Positions 38,981-54,281 of a stretch of 54,281 nucleotides of DNA are shown one piece after another. The position numbers and the translations under genes were made by a program. This stretch comes from an uncultured Candidatus Saccharibacteria bacterium (GTDB lineage Bacteria; Patescibacteriota; Minisyncoccia; Ryanbacterales; HO2-45-13): positions 1-54,281 of the forward strand of contig CAYHBS010000001.1 of NCBI GenBank assembly GCA_964354975.1. The letters run 5' to 3'. A model generated the notes under the pieces. That model worked only from the letters and a program-made list of their open reading frames with translations. It was not told the DNA's origin and made no database searches. The number at the start of each line of letters is the position of its first letter. Positions within the stretch are counted from its first letter, which is position 1.

Positions 38981-40072
38981 TTAGAATCCTTCTTTTCTCA
39001 TTTCATCTGCAATTTCTTTAATACGCTTGGTCACGCGACGCGGCATTTCAATATGTACTTCAAGTAACAAATCTCCGCGTTCCGTTCCCTCTCCCCTCGG
39101 AAATCCTTTGGAACGAATGCGTAGCATGTCCCCTGTTTGTGTGCCTGCGGGAATTTTGATATTTGTTTTTCCCTCGAGTGTTTCAATAGACCTATCAGCG
39201 CCTACCAGTGCGTCTGAAAGCGCGACGTGCAAATCCATAATCAGGTCATCATTTTCTCTATGGAATTTTTCGTGCTTGAGTACGTGTACTTTTACGTAGA
39301 GATCTCCGGGTCCCCCGTTCGGCATTGCCTCTCCTTTACCGGACATACGAATCACTTCTCCGTTACGAATACCTGGAGGTACTACAATATGGATTTCCTC
39401 ATTTGCGGGATGCACACCGGTCCCGCCACAGGGTTTACACGGATTTTCCGGAATAGTTCCCTTTCCACCACAGTGTGTACACTCGGTGAGCTGGGCAAAT
39501 GTGCCAAAAAGTGTGCGACGAGATTGACGCACGGTTCCAGATCCCTGGCACGTTGTGCAGGATTTTGTTGTTGATCCCTTGGCGTTTCCGGATCCCTGGC
39601 ATACGGTGCATGCGGCAATTTTCCGGATAAGCACTCGGCGATCGGTACCAAATAGTGATTCTTGAAATGGAATTTCAATATCGATGGAAATATCTCGCCC
39701 GCGTTTTTCGCGCTGCTTTCCACCTCCTCCAAACCCAAAGAAGTCTTCGAAAATTTCGCCCATGTCCACATTAAATCCACCGCCTCCAAAATTGCGGGGA
39801 TCAAATCCGCTGAAATCCCAACCATTGGGAGATCCTCCTCCTACACCAGGACCTGCGGCACCAAACATGTCATACTGCTTGCGCTGTTCGTCGTTGGAGA
39901 GCACCTGATACGCCTCGTTGATTTCTTTAAACTTTGATTCCGCCTCCTTGCGCTTTTCTGGGTCACGATGCTTGTCGGGATGAAATTCATGCGCGAGTTT
40001 ACGGTATGCCTTTTTAATATCATCCTTCGTGGATGACTTTGAAATACCAAGGATATTGTAATAGTCCTTCAT
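38981..40072 (-). CDS. dnaJ: Chaperone DnaJ
   Basis: J domain with HPD, G/F-rich region and four CxxCxGxG repeats. Confidence 0.97.
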   Translation of the reverse strand: MKDYYNILGISKSSTKDDIKKAYRKLAHEFHPDKHRDPEKRKEAESKFKEINEAYQVLSNDEQRKQYDMFGAAGPGVGGGSPNGWDFSGFDPRNFGGGGFNVDMGEIFEDFFGFGGGGKQREKRGRDISIDIEIPFQESLFGTDRRVLIRKIAACTVCQGSGNAKGSTTKSCTTCQGSGTVRQSRRTLFGTFAQLTECTHCGGKGTIPENPCKPCGGTGVHPANEEIHIVVPPGIRNGEVIRMSGKGEAMPNGGPGDLYVKVHVLKHEKFHRENDDLIMDLHVALSDALVGADRSIETLEGKTNIKIPAGTQTGDMLRIRSKGFPRGEGTERGDLLLEVHIEMPRRVTKRIKEIADEMRKEGF

Positions 40073-41034
40073 GAAATTGTGGGATATTTAACAGTCACAA
40101 TACGTTCTTTATACGTGATGAGATGCAGATTGTCCATGGTGCGAAGCACGCCGAGCGCAATAAGGATAACGGCCCATTTAAGGAAGAAAAACAGAAACTG
40201 TAGCGTGAAAAATATACCGATTGCGCTCACGATGGGAAAATACCTTGCAAAATATTGCGAAATACTCCCCACACTGCCAAACGGCCTATCTGCGAACGCC
40301 AACACAATCTCATAACTCACATCAGCCATCGTATCATCCGGCTCAATAGTGGTGTTGTATTTTGTATTCAGCGCTGAAAGTTGTTGGCGTACCAATTCTG
40401 CGCGGAGATACGCAGGAACTTGATCATCAATTTGCGCAAGAATATATGATTCGACTGTCTGCTCCGCTGTAAAATTTGGAGACGTTTGTTTGAGAATAGG
40501 TTCAATTTTTTGCATCACTGCGACGATATGCTCACGCTTTAATGCAGATTGCAGTGTGGCCGCAACTGCGGGGCGCGTGTTGTAAAACGAGATTGCGATA
40601 ATGAGCGCCATCACGGTAAACCAAAAGCCGTACGCTACACGAAGGGGTTGAAAAAAGAATGTGTCGCGCTCATCTTCCACAATGTGGCGCACGCGGTTGC
40701 GAATGAGCATACCAACAGCAAATAGGGCGCCAACTGGGATCACTTGCAGAAATACCACTTGCGGAATTAGTGCGGCAACAGCAACAATCATCCATGCATA
40801 TTTCCAATACGCTGAACGTGCGGTCAGGATCATGGTGACCCCGTACCACACCGAAAACACGGTAAGCGTCGCAAACCCCCACACAATTGCATTATCGCTC
40901 ATACGCACATCCGGGAGCACCGCTCGTAACGTAAAAAAATACCAGCATGCGGATGCAAACAGTACGACGTAGAGCAGCATCTCCTTCCAGCTGATGCGTG
41001 TACGCGTGCTACTATTTGCTTCCGTCGTTTCCAA
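40069..41034 (-). CDS. Hypothetical polytopic membrane protein
   Basis: About five N-terminal TMs, a ~110-aa loop and C-terminal TMs; overlaps both dnaK and dnaJ. Confidence 0.75.
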
Positions 41035-44025: not shown

Positions 44026-44043
44026 ATGGGTATCATAAAAACA

Positions 44044-44070
44044 TTAGCACTCTCATGTCAAGAGTGCTAA
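44044..44070. promoter_or_regulatory. CIRCE operator overlapping the -35 box of the hrcA promoter
   Basis: Perfect TTAGCACTC-N9-GAGTGCTAA. On the minus strand, TTGACA (44061-44056)-18bp-TATGAT (44037-44032). Confidence 0.96.
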
Positions 44071-44082
44071 TTTGTGCCCCCA

Positions 44083-45297
44083 TTATTTATACTTGAGCGC
44101 GGTGAGCGGATTGAGGTGAAAGGCTCGCCGTCCCGGTAAAATCCCCGTCACAAACCCCACCATCGTCGAAAAGATAATAATAATTGCCACAAACCATATT
44201 GGGGTCTTAAAGATGTCAACCTGCGTTCCTCCTAACTGACTTGCGAGAAAATCAAGACCCGTGGTGACAATCACCTGACCGAGGAGCCCTATTAACACCC
44301 CTCCCACGCCTCCAAGAAATCCCATAAGACCTGACTCGATAAGAAATAGCCAAAACATATCAACGCGGCTTGCGCCCAGAGATCGCATAATACCAATTTC
44401 TTGTGTGCGTTCAAGAAATGCGATGGTCATCGTATTAATCATACCAATCGCAGATACCACAAGCGCGGCGGCACCAAACACCACGAGAATAATTTGCACC
44501 GCCCGAAAGACTTTATTTGCCTGATCTACCACGTCCGAAAGTGCCTGCACACTAAATCCCATCTCGAGAATAGTATTTCGAATCCCATCAAGCACATCGG
44601 CATTCTCTACTCCCACTTTTGCCTGCGTATATTCCTTCATCGTAATTTCCGGAATGAGCCCAGGTGAAAAATACACGGTGGGAGATTCCGATGGAATAAT
44701 ACCAATGATCACCGCATTTTTTACGAGCTCGTTTGTAGCGACTACCGTGGTGCTGGTGGCGGTATATTCAACCGTTTCTTCGATAAATATTGTAAGTGTT
44801 ACTTGTTTTCCAAGAATCTCTTCTGGTGTCCATGCAAATGTTTCGGCAAGCGAAGATGCAACGAGCACTCCGCTGTCATCGCCCACATCATAGAGCTTTC
44901 CTGGCGCAATTTTATCCTCACTAAACCCATTCATTGGGAAAATAGCTGGCTCGGCAATTTGTGCGCTTACGTCAGTCGTTCCTTCAGAATCTGTGAGTTG
45001 GGCGGCAAGAATTGATACCGGAACAACTTTTGTCACACTGGATATAGTGTTGAATTTTTCAAGCGCCTTTGTATCGAGCTTCAATAATTCCGCATCCGCA
45101 GGGTAGACATCGAGTGAAAGTAGCGCTTCGCTTTGCGCAATACTTTCGATGAGTAGCACCTGAAGACCCGTGCCAAGTGAAAAAAGAAAGACAATCGTGC
45201 CAATACCTACGGACATGCCAAGAATGGTGAGCGCGGTACGGAGCATGCGCGTATGGAACATGCGGGTTGAAAGCGATAGCGTATCTGATACTCGCAT
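44083..45297 (-). CDS. MacB/FtsX-family ABC permease
   Basis: RTALTILGMSVGIG, large extracytoplasmic domain, GMINTM...ERTQEIGIMRSLGA, LNPLTALKY. Confidence 0.9.
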   Translation of the reverse strand: MRVSDTLSLSTRMFHTRMLRTALTILGMSVGIGTIVFLFSLGTGLQVLLIESIAQSEALLSLDVYPADAELLKLDTKALEKFNTISSVTKVVPVSILAAQLTDSEGTTDVSAQIAEPAIFPMNGFSEDKIAPGKLYDVGDDSGVLVASSLAETFAWTPEEILGKQVTLTIFIEETVEYTATSTTVVATNELVKNAVIIGIIPSESPTVYFSPGLIPEITMKEYTQAKVGVENADVLDGIRNTILEMGFSVQALSDVVDQANKVFRAVQIILVVFGAAALVVSAIGMINTMTIAFLERTQEIGIMRSLGASRVDMFWLFLIESGLMGFLGGVGGVLIGLLGQVIVTTGLDFLASQLGGTQVDIFKTPIWFVAIIIIFSTMVGFVTGILPGRRAFHLNPLTALKYK

Positions 45298-45299
45298 AG

Positions 45300-47627
45300 T
45301 TATTGAATGGTGATTATTCTTCTTGGCCGTTCTCCGCGTACATCGTCAATTTTGTCCGCAAATACGACATGCGGAGTGTCGAGCGATGTATGTTCAGCGG
45401 ACACAATATGCGCAGTTGGTTTCTCTTTGGATTCTGAACGCGCTTGTGTGTCTACAAGCCCCTCAATAGGAACATACATCCGCGGCGGTGGTTTTGGTGG
45501 AAGAACGCTTTGCGCGTGTGCGGGATGTTGGATGGGTTTCGTATATGACCGAATATCTCCCGACGAGGATGGTTTCGGCATAATGACATGAGGAACATGT
45601 GGCTTCGGTATTAAGAGAGAAGAAGTGGGTGTGCGTGCGGGCACCGTGGGAACAACCGACGCCACGGACTTAGCTGTCGCTGCAGATGACGCATCGAAAT
45701 CATTGGTGTCGCGAGCAATTTCCGATTGCGGCGTGGCAACTTCTGGTAACACAAATGAGCCATTGGTCAATTTCAGTGCATTCTCGGTGAGTCGTTCAAG
45801 TTGCTCAACGGTCATGCGCTCGAGACTCCCTAAATCACTCTTTGACTTCGCGTGCGATGTTGCCGGAACCACAACTTCAGATTTTCTGACTGCGGTGTGT
45901 ACCCGTTTCGTTGGTAGGACAGCTGAAGGTGTATCTACGCTCGTATCCACTTCAACGGGATCACGCGGGAATTCAATAGCCGGCGACATCTTCTTTTCAC
46001 TTTCCTGAACAGCGCGCTTCGCCTCGTCAATACGAGGAGTGTGCACTACCGGCGACGTCTGTGAAATTGGTACCTCCTCTTTCTTGGTTGGTGCGGCGCT
46101 CGGAGTGGATGCGGCAACTGGCTTCTGCACGATTGGTGTAGCGCGCATCGCTTTAATTGGTACATCAGCGATTGTTTTAACAGGTTCCGTTACTTTTGGA
46201 ACAATGACCTCTTTTGAAATAGGTTTAGTCGGTATGTCAGTAGCGTCTTTGCGAATCTCCCCCTTATTCTTTATTCCAAAGAGGTGCGGGCGTAGTTTTT
46301 TATCACCAATACCACGCTTCATTTCATCAAAGTTCATTAAAATGAGCTCGAGTTGCCTGGCAATATTTCGCGCGGTGCGCACATTGAGACCCGCTCCACC
46401 CTGCGCAAACGGTTTATCGAGGAGCGCCATAAATCCATCATGCCCGAGAGATCCTTCAAGACGGCTTTTAATGATGCTCTGCAAACGCGTAAGTAATTCC
46501 GGTGTTGATTTGTGCTCGGTAATCTCAAGTAGATATGCGGTGACGGTATCGAGAATAATTTGATATTCTTCATACGATGAAGGGTAGGATCGGAATTTTT
46601 CGATCATGTACTCACTCATGCGTGCGATATGATCGAGTCGCTTGGACATTCTTTCTGCAAACGGATGATAGAGACCAATTCCAGACTTCCGAATTGGAGC
46701 GGTTGCAATGTTTTGAAATTCTTCGAGCGAGATTTTTTTCTTTATGTACTCACCCACAATCTGCTCTAATCGCTGTTCTGCCTGAATATCAAGCTCGTTG
46801 AGCAAATACCACGTAACCATTTTCGCCTTCAGCTCATCTTCTTCAAGATGCGGATATATTTTTGCAAATTCTTGGAGTCCGTGATTGATGAATGGCTGTA
46901 CTTCTTGTTCTTTCTTCTCCTGGATTTCTGCTTCTACATTACGGACTTCGCGCACAATTTTTCCATCTTTCATATAAAATACGCGGTCTGCATATTTTAG
47001 GTGGTTTGGGTTGTGCGTGACCATGATAATGGTTTTGCCATCTTTCTTATTAAGCTGCGTGAATACTTCAAGCACGCTTTCCGCCGCTTTTGAATCGAGG
47101 TTTCCAACGGGTTCATCCGCAAGTAAAATTGGCGCTTTATTGATGAGCGCTCGCGCGATAGAAACGCGTTGCTGCTGACCTCCGGAAAGTTGGTTTGGAA
47201 ATTTATGTGCCTGCTCGTCAATACCAAATCGGGAGAGATACTGCATTGCCTCGGCTTCCCGTTCCCTTTTCGATTTACTCGTAAACACCTGTGGAAGTGT
47301 CACATTTTGCATATTCGTGAGCGTACTAATGAGATAGTACGCCTGAAATACCATTCCGATAGAAGAACGGTGATACCGAATCGCATCGGTTACCGAGAGT
47401 GAATCAAGCGCATATCCATTTGACGCAATGGACCCTGAACTCAATTGCTCGAGCCCTGCAATGGCATACAGTATTGTCGATTTTCCACATCCTGATGGCC
47501 CAAAGAAAATCACATACTCATGCTCATAAATATCAAGTGAAATATCGTCAAGCGCACGCTGGGGAGTGCCGGAGTGCTCGCCATATACTACGGATGCATT
47601 GCGAATGGATATAATGGGTGTTGGCAT
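45300..47627 (-). CDS. MacB/LolD-type ABC ATPase with a ~540-aa C-terminal extension
   Basis: GPSGCGKST, LSGGQQQR, LADEPVGNLD and VTH lie in the first ~235 aa, followed by a helical repeat region and a P/T/S-rich tail. Confidence 0.9.
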   Translation of the reverse strand: MPTPIISIRNASVVYGEHSGTPQRALDDISLDIYEHEYVIFFGPSGCGKSTILYAIAGLEQLSSGSIASNGYALDSLSVTDAIRYHRSSIGMVFQAYYLISTLTNMQNVTLPQVFTSKSKREREAEAMQYLSRFGIDEQAHKFPNQLSGGQQQRVSIARALINKAPILLADEPVGNLDSKAAESVLEVFTQLNKKDGKTIIMVTHNPNHLKYADRVFYMKDGKIVREVRNVEAEIQEKKEQEVQPFINHGLQEFAKIYPHLEEDELKAKMVTWYLLNELDIQAEQRLEQIVGEYIKKKISLEEFQNIATAPIRKSGIGLYHPFAERMSKRLDHIARMSEYMIEKFRSYPSSYEEYQIILDTVTAYLLEITEHKSTPELLTRLQSIIKSRLEGSLGHDGFMALLDKPFAQGGAGLNVRTARNIARQLELILMNFDEMKRGIGDKKLRPHLFGIKNKGEIRKDATDIPTKPISKEVIVPKVTEPVKTIADVPIKAMRATPIVQKPVAASTPSAAPTKKEEVPISQTSPVVHTPRIDEAKRAVQESEKKMSPAIEFPRDPVEVDTSVDTPSAVLPTKRVHTAVRKSEVVVPATSHAKSKSDLGSLERMTVEQLERLTENALKLTNGSFVLPEVATPQSEIARDTNDFDASSAATAKSVASVVPTVPARTPTSSLLIPKPHVPHVIMPKPSSSGDIRSYTKPIQHPAHAQSVLPPKPPPRMYVPIEGLVDTQARSESKEKPTAHIVSAEHTSLDTPHVVFADKIDDVRGERPRRIITIQ

Positions 47628-47631
47628 AGTA

Positions 47632-50600
47632 TTAGAGCTCCTTCAGAAACCCAAATGCGTCTTCAAAGTTCTTAATAATAAGCTCAAGCACTGACTCTTC
47701 CTTCCGAGGAGTAAAAATCTTGAATTGTCGAGATTCTCCCCTGTTCCCCGCGGCGTCCGTCGAAACAACCCGAAAAGTGTAGATTGTTGCTGGGCGTAGT
47801 CTCGTAATGACGATCACGTGACTTGAGGTAATATCACTCATTGTCGGTGATTTTTGGAGATTTGATCCCTCAAGCCGCGCGCCTTCAACATACTCTACCT
47901 GGGACGTTGAAGATTCGTCGGTAGACCACGTGATCACCGCTTGCACATTATCTTCTCGTCCGGTAGAGAGCGTAAGTTTTGTGCGCACTGAAGTAATCTC
48001 GGGAGGTATATTATCGGGACTCGTTTGAAAGTTGCGCGGATCGGTGCGCACCGTTTCACCTTCTTCTGATTGTGCCACAATAAAGAGCGCGTACTTTGTT
48101 TCGGACTTCAGGTCTTTTGCCACATACTCATGCTCTAATTGCACGTCGCTTACTTCGATGGTGCGCCCTTCTCCCGTTGTTCTATCCTGGATATTGATCA
48201 CCGCTTTGGTGGGAATGTTTGTTTTCCAGCTCACGCGCACGGAATATTCCGTAATGTCTCCGATTTTGAATTCATCAAATTTCGGCTGAATGGGCAGTGT
48301 TTTAAATGTACGATTTATGCCTATCGTTTTTGTTCCGCCCTTTTCTTCACCGCTGATTTGAAAATTGTACGACGTGAACGGCTTCAATTCCGTCAGCGTT
48401 ACTTTGTGAACTGTGACAAATTCTGATTTCTTCCCCGCCTCTTTCGTATACGGATTATCTTTATCATCTTCGAATTCTATGTCCGAAGCATACGAAACAA
48501 TACTGTTTGTTTCAGTAAGCGTCTCCCACTCAATAATTGCAGTGGTGTCGGTGACCGTCACGTTTGGCTTTGATCCCAAAATGCGAGGTGGCCCCGCGAG
48601 TTCTCCAAACAGTACCTTGAGCGCCTTTGCCCGCTCTTCCTCTCCAACTAATTTAATCCCTGCGAGGAAATCTTGAAGGAGCGCTTGAGTGGACGATGAG
48701 AGTGCGGTAAAACTTTCAAGCAGTTCCAGTTGCTGTTTGTTTGCCTCCTCGAGCAACTGCTCTTCTAATTCATCAAGTGCCTCTTCTTCGGTGGTACTTG
48801 CGAGTGTAGTGAATGTTTTTTCAAGACTTGATGACTGCACACCACAGGAATTCAAGGCGGTGATTTTATAGAAATACTCTGTGCCGGTTTTCAAACTGTC
48901 AACCGAAACAGTAAAGTCAGATTTAAATGTTGGCCCCGCGCTCACAAAATCGTCCAGAGATCCGCTGGAAAGTCCGTATTCGACCGTGCCAATCGTGTCT
49001 TCATTGGTATACCATTTAATTTTTGCTGATTTCGACTTCACCTCATACGCTTCAATACCGCTGATGCCAATGCCCGCTGTGGAATTGCATTCCCCAGGAA
49101 CAATTTGCTCCTCGGTCCCGGCAGTTTCCTCGGCAGTTTTAAATGAGAATGAGACGCCAGACGTATCCGCACTCAAGCTCGAAATGTTCCCAGCCTCATC
49201 CGTGGCAGTGATTTGATAATAATATATGGTATTTGGCTGCAGGTTCGTCAGTGTAACCGAATGTGTGGTGTTAAAATCTGTCGTTGAGGTTCCGACCTCG
49301 ACTCCGTAGAGTGTTGAGAGACCATAATCAAGAGCGGTCAACGCGAGCTCACTGGTGCGCCACGTTACGACCGCAGAATTTGCTGTGATAATTGGAGTTG
49401 CTATATTTGAAATGACTGGTGGAGTTACATCATCTTTTTTCTCTGTTGCGGCAGATGGAGGTGCAATGAAGATCGCTACGTCTTCCGAAGTTTCTTCGTC
49501 ACCATTAGTCGCTCTGGCGCGTACCCGAAACGTATATGTCACTTTTCCAAGGAGATCTGTTGGAAGCACGATCGAATGATTTGTTGTCGGGGACATATTT
49601 CCATACACTTCCCCTAGTCCACGATTAAATCCATATTCGACGTATCCAACTGCTGCAACATTAGTGATAAATGTGACCGTCGTCTGTTGTTCGTTGATAC
49701 TGACGTTCACATTTGAAATCACAATTTGATTTGTATTTTTTAATGTTCCAAATTTATAGATAGTGTCAGAATCGGGTACCGTGTTCCCACGGGGATCAGC
49801 GCTTTTAATACGGGCGTACCAGAATGTTGCATCGGGAAGTCCCGCCACTTCTAGCATATGATTCTGGGTGAGGTTTGGATTACTCGCGCGGTAGATGTCA
49901 GTAAATGAGGTTGATTTTGAAACTTCCAACACGGATGTTGCATCTTCGTTCGTGCTCCATTGCATCAACACGCTGTTTGTGTGGGCACCAACAATAGTCG
50001 CTCCACTCACTACCGGTGGGGCGCTGTCGGTTGATGCTGGTGCGTCCGTTGTAAAACTTTCTTGATCAGAAATAACCTCATTTCCTGCTCCATCTACCGA
50101 GCGCACTCTGAAGAAATACTGCTGCTGGGATGAGAGTCCCGTGAGTTTTACACTATGATTTATCTTGAATTCACGCATCCCCGTAGTGTTTGAATATAGT
50201 GCGGTATTTTGCGAGGATGTTGCCGTTCCATATTCCACAAATGATGATGATTGTTCATCGGTTGTCCATGAAACGGTTGCGGTGAACGCATCAGGATCAA
50301 CCGCAATGGGCGTAGTGGATGATATTACTGGACTCAACGTGTCTCCGGTGTTCGTGTGTGTCACGCTTCCGGAGGTTCCCGCTTCGTTACCATTAATATC
50401 TCGAATCGTTACGGTGTACGTCAGTGGACTCGAAGCAGCATAATTTGTGGGAGGAACAATAGTATGATTTCGTTTATATTGATACGACCCGTACACATGC
50501 GCACCATCCGAAATAAGTGCAATCACATCTTTGTCGGCAGATATTTCAAACAGCGCTGTTTTCTCTTTTGGAATGACGGTAATGGAGGGAGTACTCGGAG

Positions 50601-53600
50601 AAGTATTATTTGTTTTTGCAGGAAATGTAAATGGTTGGGACGACGTTGCTCGCCCGATATTATTTGATGCATCAATGGCACGCACTTCATAGTCATATGG
50701 ACTGCCCGGTGTAAGTCCAACAATATTGACTTCATGCTGCCCTCCTGACGCAACAATGGATGTACTCGTTGCGGCTGGAGAATTTTCAAACGATGAGCCG
50801 CCAAATGGAGCGAGTTCATAAGCAACAGCGGAAAACGCAGCTTCCGAAGCAGTCCAATTGATGGGGATATAATTAACACCAGCTGTTCCAGATGTTGGCC
50901 CACTTTGAATAAGTGGTGCACTTACGTCAGTCGTTCTTCCTGTTGCGGTAATTTGCACCGCATTCGAGTCTCCCGAAGTATTTCCAATATTATCCCGCGT
51001 CGTCACTTTGTAGGCGTACGACTGTCCCACACAGGTGCTCGTGCAGACTTCGTGTAAATAGGTGTTATCTTCTAAATCTGTGTTGGTCACAAGGAGCGTA
51101 TAACTGACACCTGCATTGGTCGAGTAATAAATATCATACGCTGCAAAATCGTTCTCGTACCCATCGTTAGGTATTGGTACCTTTCCCCAATTGAGTAAAA
51201 ATTGCACTTCGCCGGTGTATTCATTTGATACTTCCGTAACCTGTAGCGCCGAGGGGATCCCCGGTGCAGTGGTGTCATAAATAATGTCAGACGATGCGGT
51301 TGATGTATTTCCTTTCTCATCTTTTACATACACATGGATAGTATTTTTTTGCTGCGTCGCTGGGAGATACGCGTCCACTGATCCCGCATACGATCCATAT
51401 TGTGCCCCACCAATAGCGCCTGTCGTTTGATCAAATGTTGATCCGGTAGCATCTGAACCTGCCGTGGTGCCGTATCGGAATCCTTGGGTTTTTGTTGTGT
51501 CGTCGGAATAATTAAATGAAAGTATGAGCGGACCGCGGGATTTCGATTTATAGAGCCCCGGAGTGGTGCCCGAAGGCGCCGTTAACACAATGGTATCCGT
51601 CCCAGTCGTGAATGAAGGGAAGCCACTGCCTTGCGTCGGGGGCTTCGTATCGAGAATAAACGTATTTGATTCGGCGCTCCCAATGGCATTTGCGGGCTGT
51701 AAATCACTTGCGGTGACTCGCACGCGCGCAGTTGCATAAAATACTCCTGGAATATCAGTGCCTGCAGTCCATGAAATCGTCTTATTGGCACCAACGGGGA
51801 TATTTGTGCCCACACCGGTGATGGTGGCTGCTTTAAAGTAAATACGCGCTGCATTGGTATGATTCACTACCTTTGAATTCAGATGACCCCGGTTTGCGGT
51901 GCTCGTGAAATTGATGGTGGATCCGGAAATGCTGGTGTATGTTATGAGTTCGTCGTCAATTTGCATAACACCACTCGACGGCATTTTATCGAGTTGAGTA
52001 CCAGACACCGTCACTGATGTTTGCGTTGAAGACAATGTTCCATCGGCCTCATTCACAGTGTGCCCTACGTGATACAGCGCATACACCGTTCCATTCTGTG
52101 TGTCCGGATCGGGATCGCTGTAGTCATATTGCGCCGATACAATCCCGGAATTTGACTGCTCAACAGATGGCGCAGTGTCAATACTTATGGTGGGCTTAGT
52201 GTTGATCACATACGTCACACTGATATCGCTGAATGTGGGAATGACGGCTCCATTCGATGTAAGAATGACTTTATATTGAAAATATTGATCATTGCCGTCC
52301 CGGAACATATCGGGAATCGTGCAATCTACTTTTGTCCCGGACTTTGTGCATCCACCGGCACCCGACGCAAACGCAATACTGGTACCGGAAGGTCCGCTCC
52401 ATGCGCTCCATGTGCCTGGATTTCCTCCAGTGTCAGGCGCGGAGCGCAGGAGTACCTGCACTCCCGCTCCTGTTGAAATACTTTCATTCCATGAGAGTCC
52501 TCCGAGCACACTCGAATACGCCGTGCTTGAGTCGCCAGTGTTATATGGAGATGAAATAAGCTCCGACGTAGCGGGTACGTATGAGTAATTTATACTCATC
52601 GATTTGAACCGTGGCGTTGCGGTAGTAATACCGGTAAACAAAATTTGATACTGAATATATTGATCCCCATCTCGCACACACCCACCTGTAATATCGAGTC
52701 CCACCGTCAGAGACACATCGCACGTAGGTGACCACGCAGAGGCATCACTCATGGCACTATTTCCTGATCGCATACGATACGTCATCGTCGTACCGGAGGG
52801 AACGGTCCGTTCAAATGCGGCAATGGACCCCCACGCGATTGCAGACCCTGGTTGTGGTTGAATAATTTTTGACGTATAGGTACCCGACAGCGCATACTCG
52901 GTCGAAAAATATTGGGTATTATTTCCACTATCGGTCAAAATAATGATGGGCTGCTCTTCATCAGAAAATACTAAATTGAGTGAATCGGTCGGAAATTTAT
53001 TTACGTACGTAATACCGTTGACTCCGCCAGAATCACTGTTCCATTGCGAACTGGTGACGCATAAATTAGTACCATTAATTCGACACTCCATTTTAAACAC
53101 AGCATTTGTTGGTTTACTGCTGTACAGAAACATAATTCGGCCTGAACTATTAGCCCCAAGAGAGGTGAATTTTCCCCAAGGGTTTGTTGCTGTTCCACCA
53201 TTTAGTCGCAGCATGAGATTACCACAATATAATCCGAAAGTGGCTGGTGGACTTCCGATTATGCAATAATCTAGCAATGGATCTTCAGTTGTATCACCAT
53301 TATTACTTTTTTCTCCAAAGCTTACCCATAAATGGTTCTCGGAATCGATCGTCGCACCAATACTACCAGAGGAATAAAAATTTGTGTTCCCATAAACATC
53401 TAGGTAGGTGATCTTTGAATTTCCCACGGATAATGCTATAAAAAAATTGGCATCACCAGCGCTATCAACCATAACAATAATTGCATATTGATTCTGATCC
53501 ACCACCATACGCATCATGGTAATATCTTTGCCAATATTGACCGTCGACGATTTGAATTCAAAGTTGTTAGCCCCGGAACAAATCGGAGTAGTTTGCAAGT

Positions 53601-54281
53601 TACAGGTAAAGTATTTTATGTAATGGTCTGTTGAATTTTGTTTATCCCAAAATGCATAGTGCAATGTCGAACCTTTTACTACAAGGAGTGGATACCCATC
53701 TCCAGCAGGAGTTGTTCCAACTTGAACGGGCGTACTCCATTTTGCCGAGTTTGTACAATCCGTTGTTCCCGAAGGAAGACAAGAGGTGTACCAAAACTGC
53801 TGCGTCCCCGTCTTTTCCATTGCCACGACATGGATACGGCCAGTGTCGTCCACCGCTATTGCGGGAGGGCGCCATGTTGTTGCAGCTCCTTTTGATGCAG
53901 CACTTCCGAGAATTGGCGTGGTACCTACATCGTTCGGCGTGTATTTCCAGACACTTGCACCATTACTATTAATTTCATTCCACTTCACACCAATATATTG
54001 ATCTACCGCCTTTGTGCGGAACGCAATAAATGCTCTATTATCGTACGTGGTGAGGCGCGCATTATCATTGACTTGATCTGCAAACGAGGTCATTACGGGA
54101 TCAACCGGTTCAGCCGCAAGTAACACATCATTTCGGGAGAGTCGAATCTGCCCGTCGTCACTCGTTGTAGTAATTTCATCCTCGACGGTGACGGACTGTA
54201 ACACCGCCCCCACTGCACTAAAATCACTCTTAAGTGTTTGTGTAAATGTTGCGTTCGTGGGAGTTACGGTAAGTGCCGCGC
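47632..54281 (-). CDS. Giant (>2200 aa) surface protein with many FN3/Ig-like repeats; 5' end outside window
   Basis: Frame is open to the window edge. Repeated W.T.E...S.V.YG...H.V.L..L.P.T.Y...V...D..GN modules, S/T-rich composition and Cys-paired N-terminal repeats. Confidence 0.88.
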   Translation of the reverse strand, partial: AALTVTPTNATFTQTLKSDFSAVGAVLQSVTVEDEITTTSDDGQIRLSRNDVLLAAEPVDPVMTSFADQVNDNARLTTYDNRAFIAFRTKAVDQYIGVKWNEINSNGASVWKYTPNDVGTTPILGSAASKGAATTWRPPAIAVDDTGRIHVVAMEKTGTQQFWYTSCLPSGTTDCTNSAKWSTPVQVGTTPAGDGYPLLVVKGSTLHYAFWDKQNSTDHYIKYFTCNLQTTPICSGANNFEFKSSTVNIGKDITMMRMVVDQNQYAIIVMVDSAGDANFFIALSVGNSKITYLDVYGNTNFYSSGSIGATIDSENHLWVSFGEKSNNGDTTEDPLLDYCIIGSPPATFGLYCGNLMLRLNGGTATNPWGKFTSLGANSSGRIMFLYSSKPTNAVFKMECRINGTNLCVTSSQWNSDSGGVNGITYVNKFPTDSLNLVFSDEEQPIIILTDSGNNTQYFSTEYALSGTYTSKIIQPQPGSAIAWGSIAAFERTVPSGTTMTYRMRSGNSAMSDASAWSPTCDVSLTVGLDITGGCVRDGDQYIQYQILFTGITTATPRFKSMSINYSYVPATSELISSPYNTGDSSTAYSSVLGGLSWNESISTGAGVQVLLRSAPDTGGNPGTWSAWSGPSGTSIAFASGAGGCTKSGTKVDCTIPDMFRDGNDQYFQYKVILTSNGAVIPTFSDISVTYVINTKPTISIDTAPSVEQSNSGIVSAQYDYSDPDPDTQNGTVYALYHVGHTVNEADGTLSSTQTSVTVSGTQLDKMPSSGVMQIDDELITYTSISGSTINFTSTANRGHLNSKVVNHTNAARIYFKAATITGVGTNIPVGANKTISWTAGTDIPGVFYATARVRVTASDLQPANAIGSAESNTFILDTKPPTQGSGFPSFTTGTDTIVLTAPSGTTPGLYKSKSRGPLILSFNYSDDTTKTQGFRYGTTAGSDATGSTFDQTTGAIGGAQYGSYAGSVDAYLPATQQKNTIHVYVKDEKGNTSTASSDIIYDTTAPGIPSALQVTEVSNEYTGEVQFLLNWGKVPIPNDGYENDFAAYDIYYSTNAGVSYTLLVTNTDLEDNTYLHEVCTSTCVGQSYAYKVTTRDNIGNTSGDSNAVQITATGRTTDVSAPLIQSGPTSGTAGVNYIPINWTASEAAFSAVAYELAPFGGSSFENSPAATSTSIVASGGQHEVNIVGLTPGSPYDYEVRAIDASNNIGRATSSQPFTFPAKTNNTSPSTPSITVIPKEKTALFEISADKDVIALISDGAHVYGSYQYKRNHTIVPPTNYAASSPLTYTVTIRDINGNEAGTSGSVTHTNTGDTLSPVISSTTPIAVDPDAFTATVSWTTDEQSSSFVEYGTATSSQNTALYSNTTGMREFKINHSVKLTGLSSQQQYFFRVRSVDGAGNEVISDQESFTTDAPASTDSAPPVVSGATIVGAHTNSVLMQWSTNEDATSVLEVSKSTSFTDIYRASNPNLTQNHMLEVAGLPDATFWYARIKSADPRGNTVPDSDTIYKFGTLKNTNQIVISNVNVSINEQQTTVTFITNVAAVGYVEYGFNRGLGEVYGNMSPTTNHSIVLPTDLLGKVTYTFRVRARATNGDEETSEDVAIFIAPPSAATEKKDDVTPPVISNIATPIITANSAVVTWRTSELALTALDYGLSTLYGVEVGTSTTDFNTTHSVTLTNLQPNTIYYYQITATDEAGNISSLSADTSGVSFSFKTAEETAGTEEQIVPGECNSTAGIGISGIEAYEVKSKSAKIKWYTNEDTIGTVEYGLSSGSLDDFVSAGPTFKSDFTVSVDSLKTGTEYFYKITALNSCGVQSSSLEKTFTTLASTTEEEALDELEEQLLEEANKQQLELLESFTALSSSTQALLQDFLAGIKLVGEEERAKALKVLFGELAGPPRILGSKPNVTVTDTTAIIEWETLTETNSIVSYASDIEFEDDKDNPYTKEAGKKSEFVTVHKVTLTELKPFTSYNFQISGEEKGGTKTIGINRTFKTLPIQPKFDEFKIGDITEYSVRVSWKTNIPTKAVINIQDRTTGEGRTIEVSDVQLEHEYVAKDLKSETKYALFIVAQSEEGETVRTDPRNFQTSPDNIPPEITSVRTKLTLSTGREDNVQAVITWSTDESSTSQVEYVEGARLEGSNLQKSPTMSDITSSHVIVITRLRPATIYTFRVVSTDAAGNRGESRQFKIFTPRKEESVLELIIKNFEDAFGFLKEL

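Follow-up and report, generated by a model that had tools for sequence, protein, structure and literature searches.

In an uncultured bacterium of the phylum Patescibacteria, the first 54,281 bp (hereafter the window) of the 129,588-bp contig C1 encode three minus-strand genes in tight series: a giant fibronectin type III (FN3) surface protein, an ATP-binding cassette (ABC) ATPase and a MacB/FtsX-type permease. The short amphipathic helix with which the giant protein ends is a conserved signal, borne by a family of one to six proteins per genome, and the combination of this tag with the permease-ATPase module recurs in about one fifth of the Patescibacteria genomes sampled. The trio points to a so far undescribed mode of surface-protein handling or anchoring. 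A dedicated ABC system of type VII, the MacB/FtsX-fold superfamily, may act outside the membrane on tagged proteins that have been exported by the Sec pathway, probably by docking their C-terminal base, a reading whose probability is put a little short of even. The evidence consists of the distribution of the tag and of the permease across the phylum, the conservation of the tag itself, and the architecture of the tagged proteins and of their ABC partner.

Co-occurrence of Tag and Permease

Comparisons were made with 41 related genomes (the genome of origin, G000, included), with a 401-genome sample of the phylum in which many assemblies are fragmented, and with 185,579 species genomes; the taxon names on some public records, such as 'Gammaproteobacteria' on metagenome-assembled genomes of roughly 1 Mb, are unverified record labels. 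The tail was sought with a 110-aa profile (A3) of the last FN3 domain plus tail, built from an alignment of 14 homologues, and the proposed module was taken to consist of a terminal FN3 domain with the tag helix no more than 12 residues from the C-terminus, plus a permease of the subfamily described below in the same genome. Four of the 129 tail matches (G362 C6, G035, G049 and G072) fell short of profile position 104 and were discarded before counting. Presence of the permease subfamily was scored at E<=1e-60 with a profile of 17 members (A4), and adjacency was defined as a permease at most 3.5 kb downstream of a tagged gene on the same strand.

In the 401-genome sample, the full tail module is found in 77 genomes (125 genes, with one to five tagged proteins per genome) and the permease subfamily in 89; both are present in 73 genomes and neither in 308. 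The odds ratio of this co-occurrence is 351, with a Fisher p of 9e-59 that exaggerates the association, since related genomes do not count as independent. The proposal of the first-pass annotation that the ABC pair is dedicated to such proteins is thereby borne out, since 73 of the 77 tagged genomes carry the permease subfamily. Linkage of the genes points the same way. A subfamily permease lies adjacent, downstream and on the same strand, to 66 of the 125 tagged genes, within 12 kb in some other arrangement for 8 and farther off on the same contig for 10, and at least one adjacent client-permease pair is present in 55 of the 73 genomes that have both (the tagged proteins are called clients from here on). 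The commonest gap between client and permease, 730-900 bp, is filled by a plain ABC ATPase of 252-255 aa. Joint duplication is also seen: in several genomes (e.g., G124, G349, G284 and G223) the permease is present in two or three copies, and a tagged gene of its own accompanies each.

The same association emerges from searches that start from the ATPase. Among the 41 related genomes, homologues with about 200 extra residues past the ABC domain were found in G001, G036, G037, G026 and G029, and at all five loci a surface protein (487 to >1800 aa) lies 5' and a MacB-type permease 3' of the ATPase; a near-copy of the tail ends four of these five 5' proteins, and a shortened copy is found in G029. 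Of the 41 genomes, six (the genome of origin among them) have both the full tail module and the extended ATPase, and the other 35 have neither. With a profile of the extra ATPase domain, 12 further loci were located in the 401-genome sample, eight of which have the same gene order with the tail on the 5' protein and one of which (G236) has the order ATPase-permease-client; the remaining three have no client nearby, and each of these three genomes has one tail-bearing protein elsewhere.

The tail-module search of the 185,579 species genomes returned 364 stretches, and the best 80 loci of these were classified. The tail stands at the end of its open reading frame (ORF) in all 80. Client, ATPase with extension and permease follow one another in 29 loci; client and ATPase are followed by the contig end in 2; 4 have a client, another or no ATPase, and a permease; 8 have an ABC elsewhere in the locus; 27 have no ABC and at least 3 kb of downstream sequence; and 10 are uninformative, so that an ABC lies within the locus in 43 of the 70 informative cases. 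Five genomes of the class without a local ABC were inspected, and all five encode the extended ATPase elsewhere, with one to six tagged proteins each. In the Atlas, the ATPase extension appears only in unnamed Patescibacteria clusters.

The Tag and Its Clients

The first-pass annotation had described a short amphipathic helix directly after the last FN3 repeat of the giant protein and had proposed it as a recognition or anchor signal. The sequence is as quoted there: the tail directly adjoins the last FN3 domain, it matches A3 profile positions 2-109 (E 1e-45), and its Eisenberg helical moment of 0.50 ranks 18th among the 2292 windows of the protein. As to a conserved signal, a simple core pattern is fitted by 87 of 94 tail-bearing proteins, 72 of these 87 tails being unique, and the motif recurs across the phylum in many families. 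Its consensus reads [IL]LTP[QKR]xxE[ST][VI]x[DQE][VIL]I[IF]KN[FL][EQ][DE][TI]FG[WF], with I and F conserved in 72/72 unique tails, N and P in 70/72 each, T in 68/72, G in 53/72 and the aromatic residue in 71/71. Between the end of the motif and the stop lie 4-11 residues in 86 of the 87 tails that fit the pattern, and a single residue in the remaining one. Hydrophobic positions follow an i, i+3/4 rhythm, and the conserved N and G fall on the polar face; since that face is conserved too, a specific protein contact would seem to fit the tag better than plain, unspecific lipid binding. Neither the tag nor the tail has a family in Pfam or NCBIfam.

The helix is the last part of a larger conserved base, which in the giant protein comprises an FN3 domain, a helical insert and three further FN3 domains before the tail. 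This base (aa 1834-2310) is collinear with the entire 487-aa client of G036, a member of another family (31% identity over 478 aa, E 5e-62). Beyond the base the clients differ widely. Their lengths span 239 to >3000 aa with variable N-terminal parts, the minimal ones (239-487 aa) consist of a signal or transmembrane (TM) segment plus the base and nothing more, and the two smallest (239 and 268 aa) consist of an N-terminal TM segment, one FN3 domain and the tail. The tag is indeed on the giant protein, as first noticed, but it is not the mark of one giant protein only, given the one to six tagged proteins per genome; the genome of origin has a single one.

The giant protein itself contains five to six FN3-type stretches (Pfam fn3, 1.1e-31; Pur_ac_phosph_N, 2.1e-42), with no Pfam family match in aa 1-1000 and no lipid- or ligand-binding domain among its Pfam matches. 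Its sole TM-like segment is N-terminal, a hydrophobic stretch of 19 residues at about aa 28-52 (start about 28-34) followed by an SEA/QS-like site. This Sec-type segment lies beyond the window end, in the upstream part of the contig where the first-pass annotation had advised looking for a signal peptide. A single Sec-type signal or anchor likewise stands at the N-terminus of every complete homologue. Some homologues have 50-70 basic residues ahead of the hydrophobic segment, although their start codons are uncertain, and in many large clients, as opposed to small ones, the motif YTFxQTDWSGG stands just past it. The absence of other C-terminal anchors, also claimed at first sight, holds in motif, Pfam and TM checks alike: an LPx[TSA]G motif, an SLH domain (among Pfam matches at E<=0.01) and a C-terminal TM-like segment are all missing from the giant protein. 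Sortase (PF04203) is without a match in the 99.86% complete genome of origin.

Several minor observations concern the clients. In G029 a TAA inside the motif shortens the tail of the client on contig C13 (L018 7268-10768), so that the ORF ends ...NNTFK and the profile match spans one stop; a second tagged gene of that genome lies on C54. Further secreted proteins stand 5' of the client in some loci, none of them conserved in all, among them a cohesin-domain protein (4.4e-8) in G036 (L015 9665-11182) and a conserved pair of 326- and 363-aa proteins in G257 and G148 (L059, L060). Other FN3-rich ORFs of the genome of origin carry no tag (G000:C1 around 100131-100349, in a 2851-aa frame, and C5:38750-39574, in a 581-aa frame).

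The ABC Pair

By its sequence, the pair is a member of the type VII superfamily, as all three features looked for are present: an FtsX TM bundle, a large extracytoplasmic domain and intact ATPase motifs. The permease has the order TM1, large extracytoplasmic domain, TM2-4, and contains a MacB_PCD domain (PF12704; aa 21-203, E 1.4e-12, 48.8 bits against a cut-off of 27) and an FtsX domain (PF02687; aa 273-397, E 1.7e-18, 67.3 bits against 25.5). Among solved chains the nearest is Bacillus subtilis YtrF (9o9x, E 2.6e-57), followed by MacB (1e-40), 5xu1 (6e-30), then LolF/E/C and, weakly, FtsX; the profile aligns end to end with the YtrF and MacB chains. The permease matches the A4 profile at E 1.6e-158, and with this profile subfamily members score 336-564 bits against no more than 184 for other MacB-type permeases of the same genomes. 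The subfamily thus stands apart from its paralogues, and all three findings on which the first-pass annotation had made its proposal depend, the conservation of the tag, the linkage of tag homologues to ABC genes (66 of 125) and the grouping of the permease, have turned out in its favor. Together with the tagged terminal FN3 domain, this subfamily permease gives the genome of origin both halves of the module. A loop between TM3 and TM4, presumably extracytoplasmic by MacB topology, has five residues that are invariant within the subfamily (Table 1), and its sequence differs in the other MacB-type permeases of the genome, on C27.

The ATPase combines an ABC_tran domain (aa 26-174) with about 545 further residues. 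Its Walker A (GPSGxGKST), signature (LSGGQxQR) and Walker B (DEPxGNLD) motifs are invariant or nearly so in 18 homologues. An orthologue of 772 aa, 64% identical, is found in the same genus, and the remaining 16 ATPases end at about aa 430-650. The description of the ATPase as extended in the first-pass annotation is correct for this genome and does not hold for the core of the system, as most lineages have a plain ATPase of 252-255 aa. The extension is a lineage-specific add-on outside the core module. It is found in 22 of the 401 genomes, 15 of them with strong matches, and in all 15 the tail is also present. Its repeat number varies, with three in G257 and G148, and a one-repeat form also exists. 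The extended ATPase was considered as the defining partner of the tag and rejected: in its distribution the tag exceeds the extension four- to fivefold, and it follows the permease subfamily instead.

The extension forms a family of its own, with 441 cluster representatives among 1.84 billion proteins. It has no Pfam or NCBIfam family, a sequence search of PDB gave nothing below E 0.1, Foldseek gave no match in PDB at E<=0.001, and the best Z of VIA-align over 48,161 chains, 6.5, is under the usual level for helical models. The hairpin in each repeat gives an impression of a helix-hairpin-helix motif, an assumption of ours. At one locus a C-terminal winged-helix domain replaces the extension on the ATPase (L110 10348-11382, OZ246418.1; HTH_24 2.8e-6, DUF977 1.2e-6). 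As a separate observation, 3 of the 18 loci examined first have a free-standing response-regulator receiver gene within the trio or immediately behind it (Table 1).

A Proposed Mechanism and Its Alternatives

MacB, LolCDE and FtsEX do not carry their substrates through the membrane; ATP-driven movements of their extracytoplasmic domains act on clients outside. A comparable course of events can be envisaged for the tagged proteins. Clients would reach the membrane by the Sec pathway, by means of the N-terminal signal or anchor, carrying a common C-terminal base that terminates in the last FN3 domain and the amphipathic tag helix of roughly 20 residues. The ABC would then work on the outer face, without moving the client across the membrane, and its extracytoplasmic domain or an outer-leaflet cavity would recognize the tag and base. 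ATP-driven movements might hold and reposition the C-terminal end of the client at the surface, as an anchor or deployment device, leaving the variable N-terminal parts to project outward like adhesin arms. To the ATPase, a cytoplasmic helical domain has been added in this lineage and, within this genus, also a long disordered tail. Anchoring is favored over release because no other C-terminal anchor is present, sortase is missing and the C-terminal base is conserved. The first-pass annotation had allowed for export of the giant protein across the membrane by the ABC; this is unlikely, since every complete homologue has its own N-terminal Sec-type signal or anchor. More tentatively still, the system may constitute an unrecognized sorting and anchoring apparatus of Patescibacteria, in which the ABC grasps the tag, tethers and mechanically operates one to several giant adhesin-like proteins per cell and, in some lineages, reports to the cytoplasm through an added ATPase domain (GGxGL-repeat or winged helix). 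A role in attachment to a host, as first suggested, would be in keeping with such an apparatus.

Several findings weigh against docking of the base by the ABC. The tag occurs without the permease subfamily in 4 of the 401 genomes, and the subfamily without a detected tag in 16; fragmented assemblies and score thresholds may be behind some of these, and G049 and G072 are among those counted as permease only because their tail matches had been discarded. No subfamily permease is found on the same contig for 41 of the 125 tagged genes, and this, together with up to six clients per ABC, makes one-to-one docking too simple a picture. Anchoring could be provided by the hydrophobic segment at the N-terminus, in which case no anchor would be needed at the C-terminus; as the start codons of many clients are uncertain, that segment may be either a signal that is cleaved or an anchor that stays. 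Finally, docking leaves the role of the ATPase extension unexplained. Predictions of contact were uninformative in both directions. A complex of two permeases (A4) with the 110-aa tail module (A3) scored 0.01 against a mark of 0.32, a value with no bearing on binding either way. Covariation of the tail with the permease (mutual information with average product correction, 30 x 398 columns) could draw on only 44 unique adjacent pairs and gave flat top scores of 0.26-0.34; in this small sample of 44 pairs, neither permease region is enriched, as the top 100 scores include 47 in the extracytoplasmic domain, with 54.5 expected, and 5 in the TM3-4 loop, with 6.8 expected.

The opposite direction of action, release in the manner of the Lol system, is unlikely yet has the most to recommend it among the alternatives. 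The ABC would extract the N-terminal anchor of the client, thereby freeing the giant protein or passing it to the wall or S-layer, and the tag would serve some other end, such as oligomerization or binding to the wall or to a host membrane. In its favor, all complete clients have a single N-terminal TM-like segment, many large clients share the YTFxQTDWSGG-type motif past this segment, extraction of membrane-embedded N-termini by LolCDE-type systems is established for the fold, and LolF, LolE and LolC are among the solved relatives of the permease. The feature that tracks the ABC is nevertheless the C-terminal tag, small clients without the N-terminal motif still co-occur with the ABC, and the NCBIfam Lol models score far under their cut-offs (see below).

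Less likely again is that the tagged protein is an accessory of a transporter. The substrate of the ABC would be a small molecule, lipid or peptide, and the FN3 protein an extracytoplasmic adaptor or capture arm replacing the membrane-fusion protein (MFP) of MacAB or YknXYZ. The lack of an accompanying MFP gene would be accounted for, as would the N-terminal TM segment, which MFPs also have; the minimal clients are small (239-268 aa), and the nearest relatives among solved structures (YtrF, MacB, Spr0695) are either pumps or proteins whose substrate is not known. Clients of >3000 aa and as many as six per genome are unlike a stoichiometric adaptor, and no lipid- or ligand-binding domain is matched in the client.

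Reversal of the flow of information, such that a pull on the tagged adhesin passes through the permease to the ATPase and its extension and signals to the cell, is improbable as the primary function. Sensing by type VII ABCs is known, for example in BceAB, and both the winged-helix, DNA-binding domain that takes the place of the extension in L110 and the receiver genes at 3 of the 18 first loci would suit a signaling role. The extension has no recognized fold or family, and since most lineages have a plain ATPase, signaling cannot be the core function; outside-in signaling is better viewed as something acquired in addition where the ATPase carries an extra domain. Lastly, a generic peptide or drug efflux ABC that lies by chance beside a surface-protein gene, to which the MacB and bacteriocin-export ATPases among the best NCBIfam similarities might point, is very unlikely because of the co-occurrence of tag and permease, their adjacency across many families and the separation of the permease subfamily from its paralogues, and a MacB-like pump with an adaptor is encoded separately in this genome.

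Relation to Known Systems

Both ABC proteins lie near the MacB, DevA, LolD, LolCE and FtsX models of NCBIfam and far below the curated cut-offs; for the ATPase the best matches are of the MacB, DarD, DevA and LolD types. For MacB, the equivalog NF007826 gives 197 and 68 bits, where the cut-off is 966. The FtsX models give 28-36 bits against 225-255 and FtsE 167 bits against 264.85, which places the pair outside FtsEX, and lolCE (47 bits against 362) and LolD (181 bits against 308) place it outside LolCDE. Nor is it a MacAB-type tripartite pump. The first-pass annotation had noted that the window holds no MFP or TolC gene, and this extends further: no MFP gene was seen by ORF inspection of the 18 first loci, the MFP family HlyD_3 is matched in the genome of origin solely on contig C32, and TolC/OEP has no match above cut-off anywhere in that genome. 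The adaptor on C32 belongs to a second, classical MacB-like system, consisting of the adaptor, a 239-aa ATPase and two permease genes split over the contig ends C32, C37 and C27, which is probably the general efflux-type pump of the genome; the ABC pair of the trio is consequently not such a pump.

In working mode, the proposed mechanism would be most like FtsEX with its protein partners EnvC, PcsB, CwlO and RipC. FtsEX is a non-transporting type VII ABC that grips a dedicated extracytoplasmic protein by a helical element and moves it upon ATP hydrolysis, and the permease described here likewise has the FtsX C-terminal domain. It differs in its large MacB_PCD-type domain, and its putative partner is an FN3 protein that carries a helix of 20 residues at the C-terminus, as opposed to a coiled-coil hydrolase activator. 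With the MacB-family pumps MacAB-TolC, YknXYZ, Spr0693-0695 and B. subtilis YtrEF the pair has the fold and domain order in common; it differs from them in having no adaptor or TolC gene and in its linkage to tagged surface proteins. Abstracts on YtrEF call its function enigmatic. LolCDE and the Aat system for dispersin are MacB-fold ABCs that handle Sec-exported clients after export, as is proposed here. Their client signal is an N-terminal lipid or acyl group in contrast to a C-terminal helix, and the present organism has no outer-membrane factor above cut-off.

In genomic logic, the module would seem most to resemble systems in which a tag is paired with sorting machinery, such as LPXTG with sortase. 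There, as in PEP-CTERM with exosortase and in the C-terminal domain of the type IX secretion system, a short C-terminal tag is placed on several large surface proteins per genome, tag and machinery strictly co-occur and the machinery gene often lies beside one client. The tag described here is an amphipathic helix without a TM segment, in which we know of no cleavage motif, and an ABC complex stands where those systems have a transpeptidase; LPXTG sortase anchoring is not what is found here. Type I secretion shares a C-terminal signal with an adjacent ABC. Its clients, however, have no N-terminal signal, whereas those described here do, and it relies on a different ABC fold with an MFP and an outer-membrane factor, neither of which accompanies the MacB-fold pair, so that the trio is not a type I secretion system either.

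No description of the tag or trio was found in Pfam, NCBIfam or searches of the full-text literature outside subscription journals and supplements. Passages of PMC13059738 speak only of large FN3 surface proteins; passages of PMC11809585 mention FtsEX and large FhaB/DUF2341 proteins, and a passage of 10.64898/2026.10.06.756255 concerns a host gene. New here would be a type VII ABC with a new client class and a new putative recognition tag.

Implications

Patescibacteria form a very large, mostly uncultured group whose members are attached to other microbes and have many giant surface proteins, and the module bears on the open question of how these proteins are held and used. A conserved tag with a dedicated ABC permits the surface proteome to be predicted from the tag, and a 20-residue tag peptide, a 110-residue module and the structure of a small complex offer compact handles. 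A new cytoplasmic domain on an ABC ATPase is brought to light as well. If docking of the tag proves true, mechanotransmission ABCs would acquire a new type of client, distinguished by a C-terminal helix on a Sec-exported protein, organisms often without sortase would possess an ABC-based counterpart of the sortase-LPXTG system, and the display of attachment proteins by these episymbionts would become directly accessible. Should the client turn out to do no more than serve a small substrate as adaptor, the trio would still represent an undescribed transporter architecture typical of the phylum.

Features of the Locus and Its Neighborhood

Coordinates are collected in Table 1. The tight coupling of the three genes in the first-pass annotation is confirmed, with gaps of 4 bp between the giant gene and the ATPase gene (47628-47631) and 2 bp between the ATPase and permease genes (45298-45299).

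Table 1. Features of the tag-ABC locus, in window positions unless a genome or locus is named
Feature	Position	Strand	Remarks
Giant FN3 surface protein gene, part within the window	47632..54281	-	ORF open at window end (47632-54279+)
Giant FN3 surface protein, full gene	G000:C1:47632-54564	-	2310 aa; continues 285 bp (first 95 aa) past the window
Conserved C-terminal base, aa 1834-2310	47635..49065	-	FN3, helical insert ending PPRILG, three FN3, tail helix
Last FN3 domain plus tail, 110-aa module	47635..47964	-	Profile A3
C-terminal amphipathic tag helix, last 21 aa	47635..47697	-	After conserved LTP-type hinge; motif table, helical moment
ABC ATPase gene	45300..47627	-	775 aa; ABC_tran 3e-33
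Nucleotide-binding domain, aa 1-230	46938..47627	-	AlphaFold2 (AF2) pLDDT 86-96
Cytoplasmic all-helical extension, aa 250-433	46329..46880	-	Predicted; two repeats, each with a GGxGL hairpin; AF2 pLDDT 86.4
Low-complexity P/S/T/K-rich ATPase tail, aa 441-775	45303..46307	-	Aligns solely with the same-genus orthologue among the genomes examined
MacB/FtsX-type permease gene	44083..45297	-	404 aa; Pfam MacB_PCD and FtsX
TM3-TM4 loop, about aa 345-370	44188..44265	-	G356, G357, F363, P366 and F369 invariant in 17 permeases
Receiver genes at other loci	L052 3825-4286; L016 5188-5637; L018 3920-4291		Response_reg 7.9e-8, 1.8e-10, 2.8e-23

The 3' neighbors of the permease gene are hrcA-grpE-dnaK-(ORF without family)-dnaJ. 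Between the permease stop and hrcA, an inverted repeat with 13-bp arms (stem ATTAGCACTC...GAGTGCTAAT; 44032-44071, minus strand) overlaps a sigma-70-like promoter (11/12 match) just 5' of hrcA-grpE-dnaK, and we take the repeat to be the CIRCE operator of HrcA. Because the heat-shock operon has its own promoter-like site and inverted repeat, the trio ends a transcription unit before hrcA. The hrcA ORF is short (216 aa), and the HrcA equivalog scores 128.7 bits against a cut-off of 197.2. The ORF between dnaK and dnaJ (321 aa; 40069-41034, minus strand) has no Pfam or NCBIfam family. On the other side, beyond the window, the 5' neighbor of the giant gene encodes a nucleotidyltransferase of the AbiEii family, a toxin family of type IV toxin-antitoxin systems (G000:C1:54823-55497, L001 11824-12498; E 1.5e-18), and the 258-bp spacer 5' of the giant gene contains, by eye, short direct repeats of the form TAGCTGGTAGCTT.

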